Origin: Candidatus Methylomirabilis oxygeniifera
Lineage (GTDB): Bacteria; Methylomirabilota; Methylomirabilia; Methylomirabilales; Methylomirabilaceae
NCBI GenBank assembly: GCA_000091165.1
Contig: FP565575.1
Span: forward strand, 1,710,001 to 1,742,000
Length of the DNA stretch: 32,000 bases
Direction of reading: 5' to 3'
Below are positions 465 through 28,132 of the stretch, piece by piece; position 1 is the stretch's first letter; every line of letters begins with the position of its first letter. Under the pieces are notes generated by a model, which was given only the letters and a program-made list of their open reading frames with translations, did no database searches and was not told the origin of the DNA. The position numbers and the translations under genes were made by a program.

Positions 465-1109
465 ATGGAGACGAAGAAACCCTTCGATGTCTTGAAACCC
501 CTTCTGTACGTGGGATGGTTGGCGGCGCTGCTGGGTCTCACGATGGAAGCCATTCTCGTCGCGCTCGCGGCCGGCTTTGGGACGCTGAAAGGCGCGAATC
601 CGGTTCTGGCCGATCTCGTCCAGAAGGTGTCCTGGTCAACCATCGTGTGCGTGGGCCTAGCCGTCGGCGCCACGGCAAAGAAGGCGCGGGGGCCGGTGAT
701 GGGACTTGCGGGCCTGTTCGCTGCGCCCCTCGCGTTTATGGTTGCGCGCTCGCTGCACGACGGCGCGAAGGAGGCGCTCTCGGTCGCGGCGGACGCCGGC
801 CCCGGCCCATCACTCATTCTGATCGCCATCCTCAAGGGATTCCAGTATGGCAGCTTTGGTCTGATGCTCGACTGGGTCGCGAAAAAGCCGTGGGGAGGAT
901 TGTCGGCGCACCTCGCGACGGGGCTCGCCGTGGGCGTCGTGTTCGGCGGTGCGATGGTGGCCTTCTTCGTCCAGGCCGCGCCCCAGACGCCGCCGATGTC
1001 CTCGCTTGTCTCCCGCGCCGCTAACGAGTGTCTTTTTCCCGTCGGCTGCGCGTTCGTGGTCTATGTCTCGAAGGTCCTGAAGAAGCTGAGCGGGCGACCG
1101 GAAGAGTGA
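465..1109 (+). CDS. Hypothetical integral membrane protein (several predicted TM helices)
   Basis: 214-aa ORF preceded by GAGAGGGA just upstream of the ATG. Ala/Gly/Leu/Val-rich hydrophobic stretches throughout. No family recognised. Confidence 0.5.
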   Translation: METKKPFDVLKPLLYVGWLAALLGLTMEAILVALAAGFGTLKGANPVLADLVQKVSWSTIVCVGLAVGATAKKARGPVMGLAGLFAAPLAFMVARSLHDGAKEALSVAADAGPGPSLILIAILKGFQYGSFGLMLDWVAKKPWGGLSAHLATGLAVGVVFGGAMVAFFVQAAPQTPPMSSLVSRAANECLFPVGCAFVVYVSKVLKKLSGRPEE

Positions 1110-21584: not shown

Positions 21585-21671
21585 GCCGGGGTGGCGGAAC
21601 TGGGAGACGCTCGGGACTTAAAATCCTGCGGGCTTCGGCTCATGCGGGTTCGACTCCCGCCCCCGGCACCA
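21585..21671 (+). tRNA. tRNA-Leu (anticodon UAA), CCA encoded
   Basis: Manual cloverleaf. Acceptor GCCGGGG/CCCCGGC. Anticodon arm CGGGA-CTTAAAA-TCCTG (anticodon TAA). Long variable arm. T-arm GCGGG-TTCGACT-CCCGC. Discriminator A plus CCA. Confidence 0.9.
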
Positions 21672-22408: not shown

Positions 22409-23176
22409 ATGCGTTTAAAACAGGTCAAGATCCCCTCCTTTGCTTTTGATAGCCACTCCAAACTGGCCACCTACCCGAAGGCTTTGGCGTCAGACGGTCA
22501 GATCGTTACCTCTGGGGCGATGGACGTCCTTCTGCATGTGGCCAAGCACCCACCCACATTTGCAATGATCGATGGCCAAACCTACCTCATTTCTAACCTC
22601 CTAAGCTGGCATCTCATCCGGGAGGTACTCGACCGCAATGAATTCGTTGCAGCAATCTGCGATCCCTCGGAGTGCTCGCAGCACGCCGATGTCGAGCGTT
22701 TTGCTCGCTACGACGATGCGCTGCATATCGGACTTGTCAGGACACATACTTCAGCCGCCAAGAGCAGGCCCACTGACACCCGGAAACGGCACTTAGAAGC
22801 AGGACAGATTTGTCCAGTGTGCATCAATTACAGATCGGACAAGGTCAAGCCCCTCGAAGTGCCCATGTCTACTGATCAAAACTGGCGTGCTGTCCGTGCT
22901 CGGGGGCTCGACGGTATAGTCAAGTGTCACCGATGCAGATTCAGGCTCACGCTCAGCCATGAGGAATATAGCCGCTTTCTTGTCTACAGCCTTTCCACGT
23001 CCGAAATCGTCACCATGCGGCTTGACGGGAATCAGCCCGTGATCTGTCCCGTTTGCGCAGCACGAGGCAGGCGCGGGATCGTCCTGATGCGCTGGCACGA
23101 CGATTGTATAGTAACGCGTTGTTCTCACTGCCTCTATGATTTTGAGGCGTACTCGCTCCGCGCCGAGGCGGCATGA
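22409..23176 (+). CDS. Module gene 1: hypothetical protein with two CxxC...CxxC zinc-ribbon motifs
   Basis: 255 aa. C135-P-V-C138 ... C173-H-R-C176 and C213-P-V-C216 ... C238-S-H-C241. The N-terminal ~125 aa are unassigned. No obvious SD. The stop overlaps the next start (ATGA at 23173-23176). Confidence 0.6.
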   Translation: MRLKQVKIPSFAFDSHSKLATYPKALASDGQIVTSGAMDVLLHVAKHPPTFAMIDGQTYLISNLLSWHLIREVLDRNEFVAAICDPSECSQHADVERFARYDDALHIGLVRTHTSAAKSRPTDTRKRHLEAGQICPVCINYRSDKVKPLEVPMSTDQNWRAVRARGLDGIVKCHRCRFRLTLSHEEYSRFLVYSLSTSEIVTMRLDGNQPVICPVCAARGRRGIVLMRWHDDCIVTRCSHCLYDFEAYSLRAEAA

Positions 23177-25020
23177 ATCAGAATTATGTACTGACAGAAT
23201 TCCTCAATCGCACCGGCACTCGCACAGCTACTGAAACCTCTTACTGGAATAGTAATATCATCACCCACATTCGACCGCACCTACTCAACGCCCTGTCCGG
23301 ATTACCAGAGCACACGGTCAGACGCTGGCTTTGGGCACTTCTCAGCGCTGCTGACGTACCTTTCGAGTGTGAAGGGATTCTCGCAGGTGAGCATGTCCTG
23401 CGATATTTAGTCGACCGGCATCTCTCATCCACGCTCTCACTAACGCGCATTAACGCCCGCTCCACAACAGTTTCGTGGCAGCCCAACCCGCTTGACCCGA
23501 CAATTCCACACCAAGTTCTTGATGCACTCTTTCATGCCCTTCGCGGATTATCGCCCGAGCGCACGGCACCTCTCAACAGGCGTCCGCCTCAGAGGGAGGG
23601 AGAGATTTGGTCGTTTTACCTCCAAGCGTTCCCGTTCGGGAAAAAATGTCCCTCCGCACTGCTGTTCGCGACCTGCGGAATCCTCTTGGGTCTGCGACTT
23701 CAACTCTACCACCGGAATGAGCCAGAAACGCTCAAGTGGTACGCAACTGCAGCACGAATGTTGTTTAAGTACTTCAACCACAATAGACTCACCACTCCGA
23801 TTCAGCCACTCAACCGAAAAGACTTCCTGGCGATTGTTGAGTGGAGCCTCCAAGCTCTTACCAAGAACCTCCGGCGGAGCAATGATCCCAAAGCATTACG
23901 CGAACTATACCGCGTTCGCCTCAAGCGACTCTTTGACGGCCATCAAGCCAAAAAACACCCCCATGTGGGGCCAACCAAGAACAACATCAAGACTCCAGAA
24001 CCGGCGATAGCCTCCTACGAACATCGTCCCATGGACGACCTTCCCCCAGAGATGGCCGGCGATGATCCCGCTGCAGCGTCCCTCAACCCGTTACACATTG
24101 ACGAATGCGTCGGTTATGATACAGACGACGATGACGGCACAGCGGGCGATACTGTGATACAGGAGCGTGATCTCGCCATTCATCGCTCCGCGATCTATAC
24201 GCAACCCCCGACCCAGGACGTTGTCCCGCGTAAGCCCTCCCTCTCGTCGAGCGACGTATCACGCTTTATCCTTCACCAATTTCCCTTCTGGTGGGATCCT
24301 CTCCGTGGCGGGATTGGACCACACCGGTTGATCGCTTGGCATAGACAGATCGACGCATGGCTTCAGACCGGCGTCGCAGATGGCCGCCTCTTGGTTCCAC
24401 CCCTTTCCATGTACTACGGCTGGGCTGGGTTCGCCATCACTGAGATTCAGGTAGCTTCCTATCCCACTGACGAGGATGCTCCTACAATTCCTCGGGACTG
24501 CTTCCTCTTCGATCCGGTCCGATGGCTCTTTTTTTACTACCAGCAGACACTCCAAGGACGCTCCTCCTTCATCCCGAAGTCACCAGATGGGTGGAGGCCA
24601 TCGACTCGCTGGATTGCCGTCCCGGTCGCTCCTAGACTTTCACCACTTCTCGCAACTACCCTGAAGTTTCTGGATGCGCACAACGCCCTCGTCGAGGGAG
24701 CCTCGCTCCTGCAGATCCTTACCAGAGATGGAACCCTCACGCCGCTGACGCCACGCCGATTCAAACAGATCCATCGCTCAATACTGAAAAAGACTCAACG
24801 AGACCTGCCGACACCTCCTGCCCTCGCCAGAGCGTTTCATCCGCTTATCACTACCCTGTGCGGACTAGATGAGGTAAGCGCCCGCTACCTCTCACGCCGC
24901 ACGATCACTCGGGGATTCGTCCAATCTCACTATACCCACCTGACTTTCGATCGCTTCTTCCAGGTATGCTACCAGGCCTGGAACATCTTGGACAAATGGT
25001 TGTGCGGGTTCATGGAATGA
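23173..25020 (+). CDS. Module gene 2: large tyrosine-recombinase-like protein with a degenerate catalytic set
   Basis: 615 aa. The C-terminal ~210 aa align by eye to the integrase catalytic domain. GFAITEI (Ala at the Arg-I position); ALARAFHPLITT (Arg-II kept, preceding His lost); YLSRRTITRGFVQSHYTHL (Arg instead of His-III, Tyr in a classic YTHL context). Acidic low-complexity linker at ~aa 285-330. Confidence 0.65.
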   Translation: MNQNYVLTEFLNRTGTRTATETSYWNSNIITHIRPHLLNALSGLPEHTVRRWLWALLSAADVPFECEGILAGEHVLRYLVDRHLSSTLSLTRINARSTTVSWQPNPLDPTIPHQVLDALFHALRGLSPERTAPLNRRPPQREGEIWSFYLQAFPFGKKCPSALLFATCGILLGLRLQLYHRNEPETLKWYATAARMLFKYFNHNRLTTPIQPLNRKDFLAIVEWSLQALTKNLRRSNDPKALRELYRVRLKRLFDGHQAKKHPHVGPTKNNIKTPEPAIASYEHRPMDDLPPEMAGDDPAAASLNPLHIDECVGYDTDDDDGTAGDTVIQERDLAIHRSAIYTQPPTQDVVPRKPSLSSSDVSRFILHQFPFWWDPLRGGIGPHRLIAWHRQIDAWLQTGVADGRLLVPPLSMYYGWAGFAITEIQVASYPTDEDAPTIPRDCFLFDPVRWLFFYYQQTLQGRSSFIPKSPDGWRPSTRWIAVPVAPRLSPLLATTLKFLDAHNALVEGASLLQILTRDGTLTPLTPRRFKQIHRSILKKTQRDLPTPPALARAFHPLITTLCGLDEVSARYLSRRTITRGFVQSHYTHLTFDRFFQVCYQAWNILDKWLCGFME

Positions 25021-25832
25021 TCGACATGATGCCGCGGCCCTCACGGGGCGACACTCCACGCGATCGACTTGTCCTGTCTGTCCCGCCGCCTGGCGGTTTC
25101 GGATCGCCGGTCGTCCGCACGACGGCGGCCACGCGGGATATAATTCTGCAACTCGAAGATACGATTATCCGGACAGCCAAGCCCTGGAATCGAGAGGACG
25201 TTTTGATCCACCATACAAGCATGACCGCTTACACCATGCTTGCGGTTTTTCACCTGGGCATCCGCCCGCGCAACACGCCGCATATAGGTGGAGCGGACTT
25301 GACCGGCGCCACCGCCCACTGGGTAATACAAGACAAGAGCAGCAAGATCTACTTTGAAGAGCGTCTCCTGTATGTCCCACCAGTCGTTGTCCACCTAGTC
25401 CAACAACTCGGGACGTTTCGAGGGCGGCTGGAGCGTGAGATTCTGAATCACCTCGGCTCTTCTGCCATCGCCCGACTGCCGGCAGATCCCTTATTCTTTT
25501 TCGATACAACTGGGTCGGTAGTCCCGTTTTCTTTGAAGGCATTCTGGGCGGCGCTTTGTGCGTTACCTATCGGGTTCCCGGCCGACACGCCGAGAAACTT
25601 CGGCCGCCACTGGCTTCGCACCCGACTCGCCGAAGACGGCGTCGCGGATGACCTGATGAACATGTGGTTTGGTCACACCGCGGCCGGTCGCGAACCGCTC
25701 GCCAATCACGCCAGTACGTGTTACGGACCCGCCCTGGCTCAACTCAGAGACAGAATTGCCGAATATTTACGAGAACTCGGCTTCAAGCATCTTGAATATT
25801 TCCGCCCCACAACAAGGAGGAGGTTCCTATGA
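25017..25832 (+). CDS. Module gene 3: short tyrosine recombinase (essentially catalytic domain only)
   Basis: 271 aa from the ATG at 25017, which overlaps the gene 2 stop (ATGA). HLGIRPRNTPHIGGADL (Arg-I), IQDKSSKIYFEERLLYVPP (Lys strand), NFGRHWLRTRL (N-x-x-R-H in place of H-x-x-R-H), FGHTAAGREPLANHASTCY (His-III, Tyr). Confidence 0.7.
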   Translation: MIDMMPRPSRGDTPRDRLVLSVPPPGGFGSPVVRTTAATRDIILQLEDTIIRTAKPWNREDVLIHHTSMTAYTMLAVFHLGIRPRNTPHIGGADLTGATAHWVIQDKSSKIYFEERLLYVPPVVVHLVQQLGTFRGRLEREILNHLGSSAIARLPADPLFFFDTTGSVVPFSLKAFWAALCALPIGFPADTPRNFGRHWLRTRLAEDGVADDLMNMWFGHTAAGREPLANHASTCYGPALAQLRDRIAEYLRELGFKHLEYFRPTTRRRFL

Positions 25833-28132
25833 CGACCCCCGCCACCATGGATGATGCAATCAGTGATCTCGCCGCTCGCATGGATCGAAGGAGCCGCCAT
25901 GGCGAATCGATCGCCAAGGCTTGGTGGCGCATAAGGCTGCGAATCTTGGCAATACCGATCGGTTCCGACGGTATGCGACACCTGGCAGACGATGATGTCC
26001 GGGCCCTCTCCGCGCGCTTAAGTAAGCCGGATGACCCCCGAGTTCATCGTATTGAGCAAGACAAGCGTCTCAACGATATCCTGGCCGAACTCCAGCTCCA
26101 CAAGTTCCTGAAAAGCCCATTTATGAATCATCCGGTCCAGGTTCCTCGGCATCTCCTCCTCACCCTCGACGACCTCGACCCCGCAATGATCGAACGCGCT
26201 CAGAATTTCCGTCAACGCCTTCACGGCCGCTCGATGTTGCGACCTCCCGCAACTTGGCCGAAAAATGAGGAGGCGCTCTGGCACTTCTGTGTCTTCCTTG
26301 CCTCCCTCATCCTTGATACCGGCGTCCTCTTCCCGCAGATCCTCGGTGTTGTCCTCCATCTTGTCCATGAAGACTTCACCCCTGCGGGAACAATTAACCT
26401 TCCGCGCCGACGTCAGCGACGCGGCAAGCGTCCCATCGAAGCCACCGTCCGCCGAAGGCTCCACCCGGTGACAGTGCGGGCCTATACACGCTTCCAGCAT
26501 GCGCGTAGCCCCTTCCGTAAGGTGGGTGCCCCTTCAAAGACCGCTTTCGTGTGTCCTGACGAGTGGCGAACCCCAGAATGGATGCGTCAGGTCTTCCCGT
26601 CCCGATTGTGCGCCTTTCTCAACGCGTGTGACGCCCCCACAAAGCCCTTCAGCCCACGGCACCCCTTGAGGCAGCTCATGCGCTACGGCGCCGTGACGGC
26701 CGTCTTACGTGGCATCCCACCGTTTATCATTGATACCGCCATTGGGAATGTTCTCACGAGACTCGTCACCCCCAACAGCTACCGACGTATCTTTGAGAAC
26801 AAGCCACCGGCATGGATTCTCAACGCAGCCAAGGCCCCTGGCCCCGCTCGCCGTGGGCGAATCTCCGCTCGGACACGTATTCAGGGCACGGGCCTTGAAC
26901 TCTTCGAGAAGCTTGAGGCGCTCCGCTCTCGCCTGCGCCACAGTGAGGACAGTCGGAAAGCGCGGGATGCGTTTATTGATGAGATCACATCCCTCATTGG
27001 ATCCACTCCATTCCAGCCGATTCCAGGCCCGCTGACCCAAAAGGCGATCTTTGAAGCGAACGCCAGGATGTTCGGAGGCTTCATCGCGTTTCTTCTCCGA
27101 AGCAAAATTAAGATCAGTTCGGTGCTCACCCGGACCTCGGCCATCGCCGCCGCCTTCCCCGATCTCTTCGGCTCCAAGACTCTGTGGGCTTGGTCGGCCA
27201 GCGATTATACGAAGGCGTTACATTTCGGGATGGAGGAGCACGAAACTGATCACTTTCGCATCGCACTGAAGTGGCTCGTAGCTTTCCTGCATGACTTAGG
27301 GATTTCTACCCCGCGGATCTCCTGGTGCGATGACAATCTGCAGGAACCGCTCATCGTCACGCCTGCTCCGTTGGTGGGATTTAATGACTTCGACCGGGCC
27401 TTCGACACCTGCTTCATGCTCGACACCATCCCCGACGAACTGCGAGAGCTTCTTCAGATCATGCTCATCTTGGGTTTCTGGGTCGGCCTCCGCGCCAAAG
27501 AGGCATCCCTCCTGACTCTCCGCCATTACCATCCACATCCATTCCATCTGATTGAAGTGCGACACTCTAAGTTCCCGACCAGCACCAGGGATATGTACCT
27601 CCAATACATCGTCGCGCTGCCGTACCTCATGCGCCTCAACGCGTGGTACGCCAAACGTCTGGACGAGGCGAACGGCAATCTCGATGCGCCCCTTTTGGGA
27701 ACCGGCCGGAAGATGCGCTCTGCCTCCAAGAATCCGTTAGGCTTTTATGATTCCAGCTACCTCTCGGGACTGGCCGGCCTCGTCCTCCGATGCTCCATCG
27801 GCGAGCCGATATCGTTTCATGGCCTGCGTCATGCATTTGCGTCCTGGCTCCTCTTACGACTCCTCGCGACGGATCGTCGGATCACTGTCAAGCGCTCAAT
27901 ATACCCATGGGCGTCGCCGCTCGCATTTTCATCGGAGGCCTACGATTGCCTACGGCCGCTGCTGCATGGATTCGGTACGCCAAAACCCGGCCAATCGGAA
28001 TGCTCACACATCCTCATGGCGCTCTGCCGGTTGGTCGGTCATGCCAATCCGACGACAACGCTGGAAGAGTACTGTCACACCGTTGACGTGGCCCACGCGC
28101 TCATCGAGAGCCACTTGAGGGGTCGCGGTTGA
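25829..28132 (+). CDS. Module gene 4: giant tyrosine recombinase with complete catalytic signature
   Basis: 767 aa. SD AAGGAGGAGG lies 6 nt upstream of the ATG, which overlaps the gene 3 stop (ATGA). GLRAKEASLLTL (R555), FHGLRHAFASW (H664, R667, H668), LVGHANPTTTLEEYCH (H738, Y748). SAM-like core-binding-type helix FRIALKWLVAFLHDLGI at ~aa 476-492. The first ~430 aa are unassigned. Confidence 0.8.
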   Translation: MTTPATMDDAISDLAARMDRRSRHGESIAKAWWRIRLRILAIPIGSDGMRHLADDDVRALSARLSKPDDPRVHRIEQDKRLNDILAELQLHKFLKSPFMNHPVQVPRHLLLTLDDLDPAMIERAQNFRQRLHGRSMLRPPATWPKNEEALWHFCVFLASLILDTGVLFPQILGVVLHLVHEDFTPAGTINLPRRRQRRGKRPIEATVRRRLHPVTVRAYTRFQHARSPFRKVGAPSKTAFVCPDEWRTPEWMRQVFPSRLCAFLNACDAPTKPFSPRHPLRQLMRYGAVTAVLRGIPPFIIDTAIGNVLTRLVTPNSYRRIFENKPPAWILNAAKAPGPARRGRISARTRIQGTGLELFEKLEALRSRLRHSEDSRKARDAFIDEITSLIGSTPFQPIPGPLTQKAIFEANARMFGGFIAFLLRSKIKISSVLTRTSAIAAAFPDLFGSKTLWAWSASDYTKALHFGMEEHETDHFRIALKWLVAFLHDLGISTPRISWCDDNLQEPLIVTPAPLVGFNDFDRAFDTCFMLDTIPDELRELLQIMLILGFWVGLRAKEASLLTLRHYHPHPFHLIEVRHSKFPTSTRDMYLQYIVALPYLMRLNAWYAKRLDEANGNLDAPLLGTGRKMRSASKNPLGFYDSSYLSGLAGLVLRCSIGEPISFHGLRHAFASWLLLRLLATDRRITVKRSIYPWASPLAFSSEAYDCLRPLLHGFGTPKPGQSECSHILMALCRLVGHANPTTTLEEYCHTVDVAHALIESHLRGRG

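Follow-up and report, generated by a model that had tools for sequence, protein, structure and literature searches.

The window analysed here is a stretch of 32,000 nucleotides (nt) from Candidatus Methylomirabilis oxygeniifera (assembly GCA_000091165.1, contig FP565575.1, positions 1,710,001 to 1,742,000 of the forward strand), and all coordinates below are positions within it. At its centre of interest lies a module of four overlapping genes on the same strand, delineated from the list of open reading frames (ORFs) and their translations, in which the second gene, gene 2, had been described in the original prediction as a pseudo-recombinase (Table 1). The stop of gene 1 overlaps the start of gene 2, and the stop of gene 2 and the start of gene 3 share an ATGA. 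Neither gene 2 nor gene 3 matched any entry of Pfam or NCBIfam at E <= 1; the Pfam matches of gene 1 are all weak ones to zinc-ribbon families, and those of gene 4 are weak, sub-threshold matches to PF00589 and XerD at residues 651-675 (Pfam and NCBIfam). As described below, gene 2 is the tyrosine-only half of a tandem protein of about 850 amino acids (aa) with two catalytic folds, which is split here from gene 3 at the ATGA. It is not a free-standing dead paralogue.

Table 1. Features of the recombinase-like module and its surroundings, in window coordinates.
Feature	Position	Strand	Description and basis
tRNA-Leu(UAA)	21585..21671	+	ARAGORN; 740 bp upstream of the module
Gene 1	22409..23176	+	255 aa, two Cys4 zinc-ribbon units, opens the module; ORF and translation
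Gene 2	23173..25020	+	615 aa, N-terminal two-thirds of a recombinase-like protein with two catalytic folds, split here; ORF
Core-binding-like helical domain of gene 2	23668..23952	+	about residues 166-260, mapped from residues 148-238 of the relative P0010
Acidic, proline-rich linker	23953..24297	+	gene 2 residues 261-375, about 115 residues, predicted disordered; joins the core-binding-like domain to fold 1
Catalytic fold 1, degenerate pocket	24304..25005	+	gene 2 residues about 378-611; VIA and profile match to XerA
Helix K-L-M-like segment with Arg553, Arg576 and Tyr587	24793..25005	+	in gene 2 here, in gene 3 in type B, mid-protein in fused forms
Tyr587 codon	24931..24933	+	sole residue of the catalytic set kept in fold 1
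Gene 3	25017..25832	+	271 aa from the ATG at 25017, catalytic fold 2; translation
Gene 4	25829..28132	+	767 aa, complete tyrosine recombinase motif set after a long N-terminus

The C-terminal part of gene 2 adopts a recombinase fold. Residues 355-615 were modelled with AlphaFold2 (AF2) from 25 homologues, which gave a mean predicted local distance difference test (pLDDT) score of 83 and a predicted template modelling (pTM) score of 0.82. In the VIA alignment this model superposes on XerA (4a8e) with a Z-score of 13.8 and a root-mean-square deviation (rmsd) of 3.7 Å over 176 residues (model 13-257, chain 99-279), and further matches include Brujita Int (Z 11.5), Cre and Tn1549 Int (Z 10.8 each) and lambda Int (Z 9.3); SSV1 Int (Z 10.9-11.4) likewise ranks high among the structures that resemble fold 1. 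All 47 of the structural rows listed for this segment belong to the tyrosine recombinase, topoisomerase IB or protelomerase fold. The top Foldseek matches are likewise all recombinases, with the same proteins first, yet their E-values are weak (0.02-0.1); Z-scores and aligned ranges were taken from VIA. A profile of the family matched the same segment to the archaeal XerA (4a8e, E 1.6e-4) and to a second integrase-like chain (E 3e-6). The earlier proposal that the recombinase fold is kept while its pocket is lost is supported.

Upstream of fold 1, gene 2 carries an N-terminal helical region followed by a core-binding-like domain. The placement of the latter N-terminal to the catalytic domain was seen in the model of P0010, an 850-aa relative, and is therefore indirect for the window protein. 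In the ESM Atlas model of gene 2 the structural rows span 95/137-612, and the nearest neighbours in that atlas are 'hypothetical protein' clusters only. The linker between the two domains has its counterpart in residues 239-350 of P0010, where the pLDDT falls below 50 and which form the least conserved region of the family; so long a disordered linker ahead of a catalytic fold is unusual among tyrosine recombinases.

Of the residues expected together in one catalytic domain (Arg-I, Lys, HxxR, His/Trp and Tyr), gene 2 holds Tyr587 alone. The three strings singled out previously lie where they had been placed, namely GFAITEI at residues 419-425 (Ala421, codon 24433-24435), ALARAFHPLITT at residues 550-561 (Arg553, codon 24829-24831) and YLSRRTITRGFVQSHYTHL at residues 572-590, which includes Tyr587. 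The retention of this tyrosine is borne out by the profile, which aligns it with the XerA nucleophile, and by its occurrence in 25/25 homologues (alignment A2); it is also invariant in alignment A5. Arg576 does replace His-II, as had been suggested, the family S-G-R standing opposite the canonical L-G-H, and across the 25 homologues this column holds R 13, Q 4, E 4 and K 2 times. The profile alignment and the family table agree with the prediction, too, that no histidine occupies the first position of HxxR. For Arg-I the prediction was right about the loss, with no arginine in any register, but not about the position: the conserved glycine of the 'TG.R' turn is Gly416, which makes Ala418 rather than Ala421 the Arg-I column, and across the family this column holds Asp, Pro, Thr or His, never Arg. 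The register of Ala421 likewise has no conserved arginine. The claim that Arg-II is retained is not supported: in the profile the Arg-II position falls on Ala552, and Arg553 comes just after it, at a position where only 10/25 homologues have Arg. The register of helix K is anchored by Ile/Leu551, Ser/Ala554 and the invariant Phe555, corresponding to the L, S/T and F of 'H-x-L-R-H-S-F', and on this alignment Arg553 is probably not Arg-II.

The relatives of gene 2 place these substitutions in a wider architecture. A word-indexed search returned six relatives of gene 2, one of which, P0010, continues directly into gene 3-like sequence. Exhaustive searching of 1.84 billion representatives with a profile returned 26 proteins, of which 20 are 786-899 aa long and, by alignment, colinear with gene 2 and then gene 3. 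Weak matches to PF00589 were found in 6/27 members of the gene 2/3 family. In the AF2 model of P0010 (pLDDT 81, pTM 0.60), residues 148-581 comprise the core-binding-like domain (148-238), a disordered stretch (239-350) and catalytic fold 1 (351-581), and together align to whole recombinases with their N-terminal domains included (XerA, Z 13.8; XerH; Tn1549 Int; Cre; lambda Int). A further catalytic fold, at residues 608-800, matches an integrase from methicillin-resistant Staphylococcus aureus (3nkh_A) with a Z-score of 12.1 and an rmsd of 3.4 Å over 172 residues. That most relatives carry fold 1 on the same chain as a domain whose pocket is intact does not fit a stand-alone repressor and makes it quite unlikely that gene 2 is a recombinase-fold transcription regulator, of the kind of the SPbeta repressors YopR/MrpR or of SroF, that merely sits in the operon; YopR, MrpR and SroF are indeed among its structural neighbours, but they score below the true recombinases.

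The family occurs in three forms: fused, type A, as in the window (614-615 plus 268-271 aa), and type B (543 plus 336 aa). The split points are kept in diverged sequences, two for type A and four for type B, the latter for each half. Type B is exemplified by the one close locus that was retrieved, from a search of metagenome contigs (L002), where all four genes occur in the same order with identities to the window of 56% for gene 1, 48% for gene 2 and 56% for gene 4, the last being of the same length. Gene 2 of this locus ends 70 residues earlier than that of the window, at 543 aa, with QQDLP before the stop and an ATGA overlap, and its 336-aa gene 3 has the N-terminus MTERQIDLPTAAALARAAHPLL...HYTNL, so that the Tyr-bearing helices reside in gene 3. 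This split falls inside a confidently folded domain, with a pLDDT of about 90 for helices K and L, and therefore the two type-B chains must reassemble. We strongly infer that the proteins encoded by genes 2 and 3 associate physically and work as one complex made by coupled translation. In a quick maximum-likelihood tree, types A and B form one clade (SH-like approximate likelihood-ratio test, SH-aLRT, 100) that, with midpoint rooting, is nested among the fused forms, and because of this nesting the fusion is taken as the older state.

These forms bear on two further explanations of gene 2. According to the first, it would be an autonomous recombinase that cleaves DNA alone with an unconventional pocket assembled from, for example, Arg580, His586 and Arg576. 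Two of these residues, close to Tyr587, are fairly conserved (Arg580 in 20/25, His586 in 21/25), but no conserved arginine pair or lysine can be placed in the pocket, the fusion to gene 3 and the splitting around it argue for dependence on fold 2, and fold 1 of type B is spread over two chains; we thus consider an autonomous enzyme very unlikely. According to the second, gene 2 would be a decaying paralogue and the boundary between genes 2 and 3 a recent frameshift or an assembly error. The sequence that speaks for this is P0006 (421 aa, 98% identical), which shows frame changes, among them a 1-nt insertion near codon 541. Set against it are ORFs that are intact among gene 2 homologues at 76%, 46-48% and about 30% identity, the same substitutions across the whole family, and two split points that are both clean ATGA overlaps, each present in several diverged sequences, so that decay is largely refuted and hardly credible. 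The homologue alignment showed the substitutions of gene 2 to be family-wide and, because even sequences at only about 22% identity share them, they are old, have been maintained and do not reflect decay; together with the intact homologues at 30-76% identity, they place gene 2 under selection, as the original prediction had allowed.

The insertion in P0006, which is encoded on a 52-kb contig, follows AAAAAGA within codons 539-542 (about 24790-24800), essentially at the type-B split point, and a further frame change lies near the N-terminus of P0006. This sequence could derive from an error-prone assembly or from a close relative whose copy has decayed. We also considered, and rejected, a programmed -1 frameshift that would join gene 2 to gene 3: in the fused homologue the sequence runs on colinearly from the end of gene 2 into gene 3 as read from its ATG, the 51 nt of the gene 3 frame upstream of 25017 match nothing, and the 268-271-aa homologues start at that ATG. 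A paralogous origin of gene 4 from genes 2/3 was rejected as well (hhalign probability 0.8%).

The conservation of gene 3 is complementary to that of gene 2. Within fold 2 (numbered along the 271 aa of gene 3), Arg83, Lys107, Arg197, His198 and His220 are each found in 23/23 members, and Arg201, the Arg-II residue, in 19/23, with Lys in three more. At the canonical site, immediately ahead of the last long helix, only 8/23 members have Tyr236 (25722-25724). On this pattern gene 3 provides the intact Arg-Lys-HxxR-His pocket of fold 2 without a conserved tyrosine at the canonical site, as the counterpart to the tyrosine-only fold of gene 2. The only tyrosine at >=90% conservation family-wide is the HYT tyrosine of fold 1. 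The mean fraction of the top residue is 0.48 for the K-L-M tyrosine segment and 0.47 for fold 2, as opposed to 0.36 for the rest of fold 1, and distant homology with the family starts at the tyrosine segment and continues onwards. Two distant fused members, from Aeromonas and Ketogulonicigenium, keep both the HYT tyrosine and the intact motif set of fold 2. We are highly confident of the fold, the degenerate pocket, the history of fusion and fission and the complementary conservation taken jointly.

Several short motifs of gene 3 are worth recording. Box II (25605-25619) reads R-H-W-L-R, with an intact His198-x-x-Arg201 after the invariant Arg197. At the entry to fold 2, the G-x-G-S-P motif (GFGSP, 25095-25110) is nearly invariant across the family, and the G-W-W motif ahead of it is invariant in the near group and lost in the type-A split of the window.

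In Flp the tyrosine is donated in trans, an established case of a shared active site. We tentatively put forward, at somewhat under an even chance, that genes 2 and 3 encode one unit of this kind, in which Tyr587 would be the nucleophile for the gene 3 pocket. The two products, made by coupled translation, would form one unit mimicking a recombinase dimer on one core site, with fold 1 binding DNA and fold 2 and supplying Tyr587 to the fold 2 pocket. Such a shared active site, of the Flp or SSV1-integrase kind, would have been hard-wired by duplication and fusion, and the unit, with gene 4 as a complete recombinase and gene 1 as a zinc-ribbon protein, would integrate and excise the island that lies beside the tRNA-Leu. 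By extension, and with confidence that likewise falls a little short of even, these proteins may constitute a bacterial family in which the nucleophile (fold 1) and the Arg-Lys-HxxR-His pocket (fold 2) are permanently divided and can be re-split at two points. The original prediction had offered a partner role, possibly with the tyrosine supplied in trans; this is still the best reading, narrowed in that the partner is specifically gene 3, because the two together make up a single protein, which most relatives have in fused form and a sister lineage divides at another point.

Several observations weigh against such donation across folds. Gene 3 of the window does have the canonical-site Tyr236, as do 8/12 members of the near group, and could be self-sufficient. 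A second candidate nucleophile is the tail tyrosine, Tyr261 (25797-25799, in LGFxxxxY(F/L)P), which is present in 21/23 members and confidently placed in the P0010 model (pLDDT 94). AF2 places the Tyr587 segment in cis, packed within fold 1 as is usual, and an invariant tyrosine can be structural, Phe555 being invariant too. The genomic context, which comprises three other loci only, was also counted on this side. The same points feed the principal alternative, which retains the tandem architecture and makes fold 1 purely architectural, binding a half-site or the partner and controlling assembly, as proposed for Tfp and GinC (below). Tyr587 would then be kept for structure or DNA contact, the gene 3 pocket would use Tyr236, standing at the canonical place, or the tail tyrosine, and gene 4 would carry out the other strand exchange; published dead-fold partners are, moreover, thought to be DNA binders (PMC10214605). 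We regard this alternative as a serious one, albeit on the improbable side, for the canonical-site tyrosine is missing from 15/23 members despite their intact pocket, two members and the Aeromonas relative lack the tail tyrosine, and a purely architectural fold 1 leaves unexplained why Tyr587 is the only dead-site residue surviving in all members.

Whichever residue attacks the DNA, recombinase operons with a catalytically incomplete partner have precedents, and the earlier remark that dead paralogues locked in operons are uncommon is contradicted by the published Tfp and GinC. Tfp of SEs has a recombinase fold without RHRY, the tyrosine included, and is encoded in the operon intA-tfp-intB-srap (PMC10214605), whereas GinC of GInts (operon ginABCD) lacks mainly the first arginine, all four gin genes being essential (PMC5385486). 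Gene 2 resembles Tfp in its length (about 614 aa; Tfp of pAQU1 has 614 aa), in having a recombinase fold with no working pocket and in its translational coupling to neighbours in a recombination operon of four genes, located at one end of an integrative element; the Tfp operon is required for recombination. The two differ in that Tfp has no tyrosine whereas that of the gene 2 family is invariant, in that the zinc-ribbon gene is followed here by genes 2, 3 and 4, with no Srap-like last gene seen, and in that no fusion to a second catalytic fold has been reported for Tfp. An hhalign comparison of the family profile with Tfp, IntB and IntA of the pAQU1 SE gave probabilities below 1% (0.1% for Tfp, with a single-sequence template of limited sensitivity). 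Kinship with the SE proteins was rejected on these values, and the gene 2/3 module is an analogue of SE Tfp, not a member of its family. GinC offers a similar likeness: it has a recombinase fold that is degenerate in part, is the third such protein beside two complete ones, is essential and is often annotated as hypothetical. By its description, GinC differs in standing third in ginA-ginB-ginC-ginD, after two complete recombinases and with the small helix-loop-helix GinD last, and no tandem folds are described for it.

Other recombinases share single elements of the arrangement. The best fold and profile match is to the XerA/XerC/XerD group (XerA 4a8e), which also has the order of core-binding then catalytic domain; gene 2 differs from it in lacking the pocket residues, in its 165-aa N-terminal extension and 115-aa disordered linker, and in scoring below the Pfam and NCBIfam thresholds. 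With Flp and SSV1 Int the likeness is one of proposed principle, a pocket from one catalytic fold and a tyrosine from another, but their protomers each hold both pocket and tyrosine, whereas here the partition between two folds would be permanent. The RIT trios and Tn554, with its TnpA/TnpB/TnpC, resemble the module in that several tyrosine-recombinase genes per operon drive one element. They differ, by description, in having no division into tyrosine-only and pocket-only proteins: the RIT recombinases carry the RHRY motif. The same motif is present in TnpA and TnpB of Tn554 (PMC10214605). For the trans cleavage proposed in SSV1 integrase, the references listed in PMC8371274 include Letzelter 2004 and Eilers 2012. 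Searches of the literature for recombinases of tandem or pseudo type turned up nothing specific. Recombinase operons with a dead-fold partner are known, and the tandem, complementary, twice-split form appears to be undescribed.

Tyrosine recombinases are usually judged gene by gene, and proteins without the RHR set or without the tyrosine are dismissed as dead. In this module what one 'incomplete' neighbour lacks is exactly what the other supplies, and in most relatives the two are one polypeptide. If the tyrosine is donated across the folds, the module would be a natural, hard-wired version of the Flp-style shared active site, would give a direct handle on half-of-the-sites control and would provide a natural split-enzyme design for recombinase engineering. 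The family also represents unannotated integrative modules, whose 'hypothetical proteins' lie below Pfam thresholds and are missed by annotation and island-finding tools alike, and Tfp and GinC are worth re-examining for a similar complementarity.

The role of the module is most likely the integration and excision of an island, because it begins 740 bp past a tRNA-Leu(UAA) and because none of 19 congeneric genomes carries the gene 2/3 family. The tRNA-Leu(UAA) is the likely integration site. A 25-nt probe from its 3' end (21647-21671) revealed no direct repeat near the island, whose far end was not located; the other genome-wide matches of this probe are only distant tRNA genes, and a usual tRNA-end attR was not found with it. 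No tRNA adjoins the L002 module. A search of 251 related genomes gave one partial match only, at a contig end, and the gene 2/3 family had no match in scans of genome contigs or in a search of viral contigs, nor did plasmids yield any when searched by tblastn with genes 2 and 3.

A search with P0023 recovered the two distant loci. In Aeromonas caviae KAM479 (NZ_AP026896.1, L003:3693-9886, unannotated), an 815-aa distant fused member was identified (hhalign 98.4%). An overlapping ORF of 202 aa precedes it and, beyond a gap, an IS66 transposase lies downstream; this module may be interrupted. Plasmid p1 of Ketogulonicigenium vulgare (NZ_CP103998.1, L004:4000-10432) encodes a 738-aa distant fused member (hhalign 99.6%), whose gene forms an operon with three others, all four 'hypothetical' (141, 738, 1014 and 248 aa), between an IS3 element and a HipA pair. 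The 1014-aa protein of this operon shows a motif order like that of gene 4 (GLR...HxLR...long insert...GH...Y), its BLAST match being non-significant. In gene 4 itself, an insertion of about 70 residues separates HxxR from His-II (27830-28039), and both its length and most of its sequence are kept in the L002 homologue.

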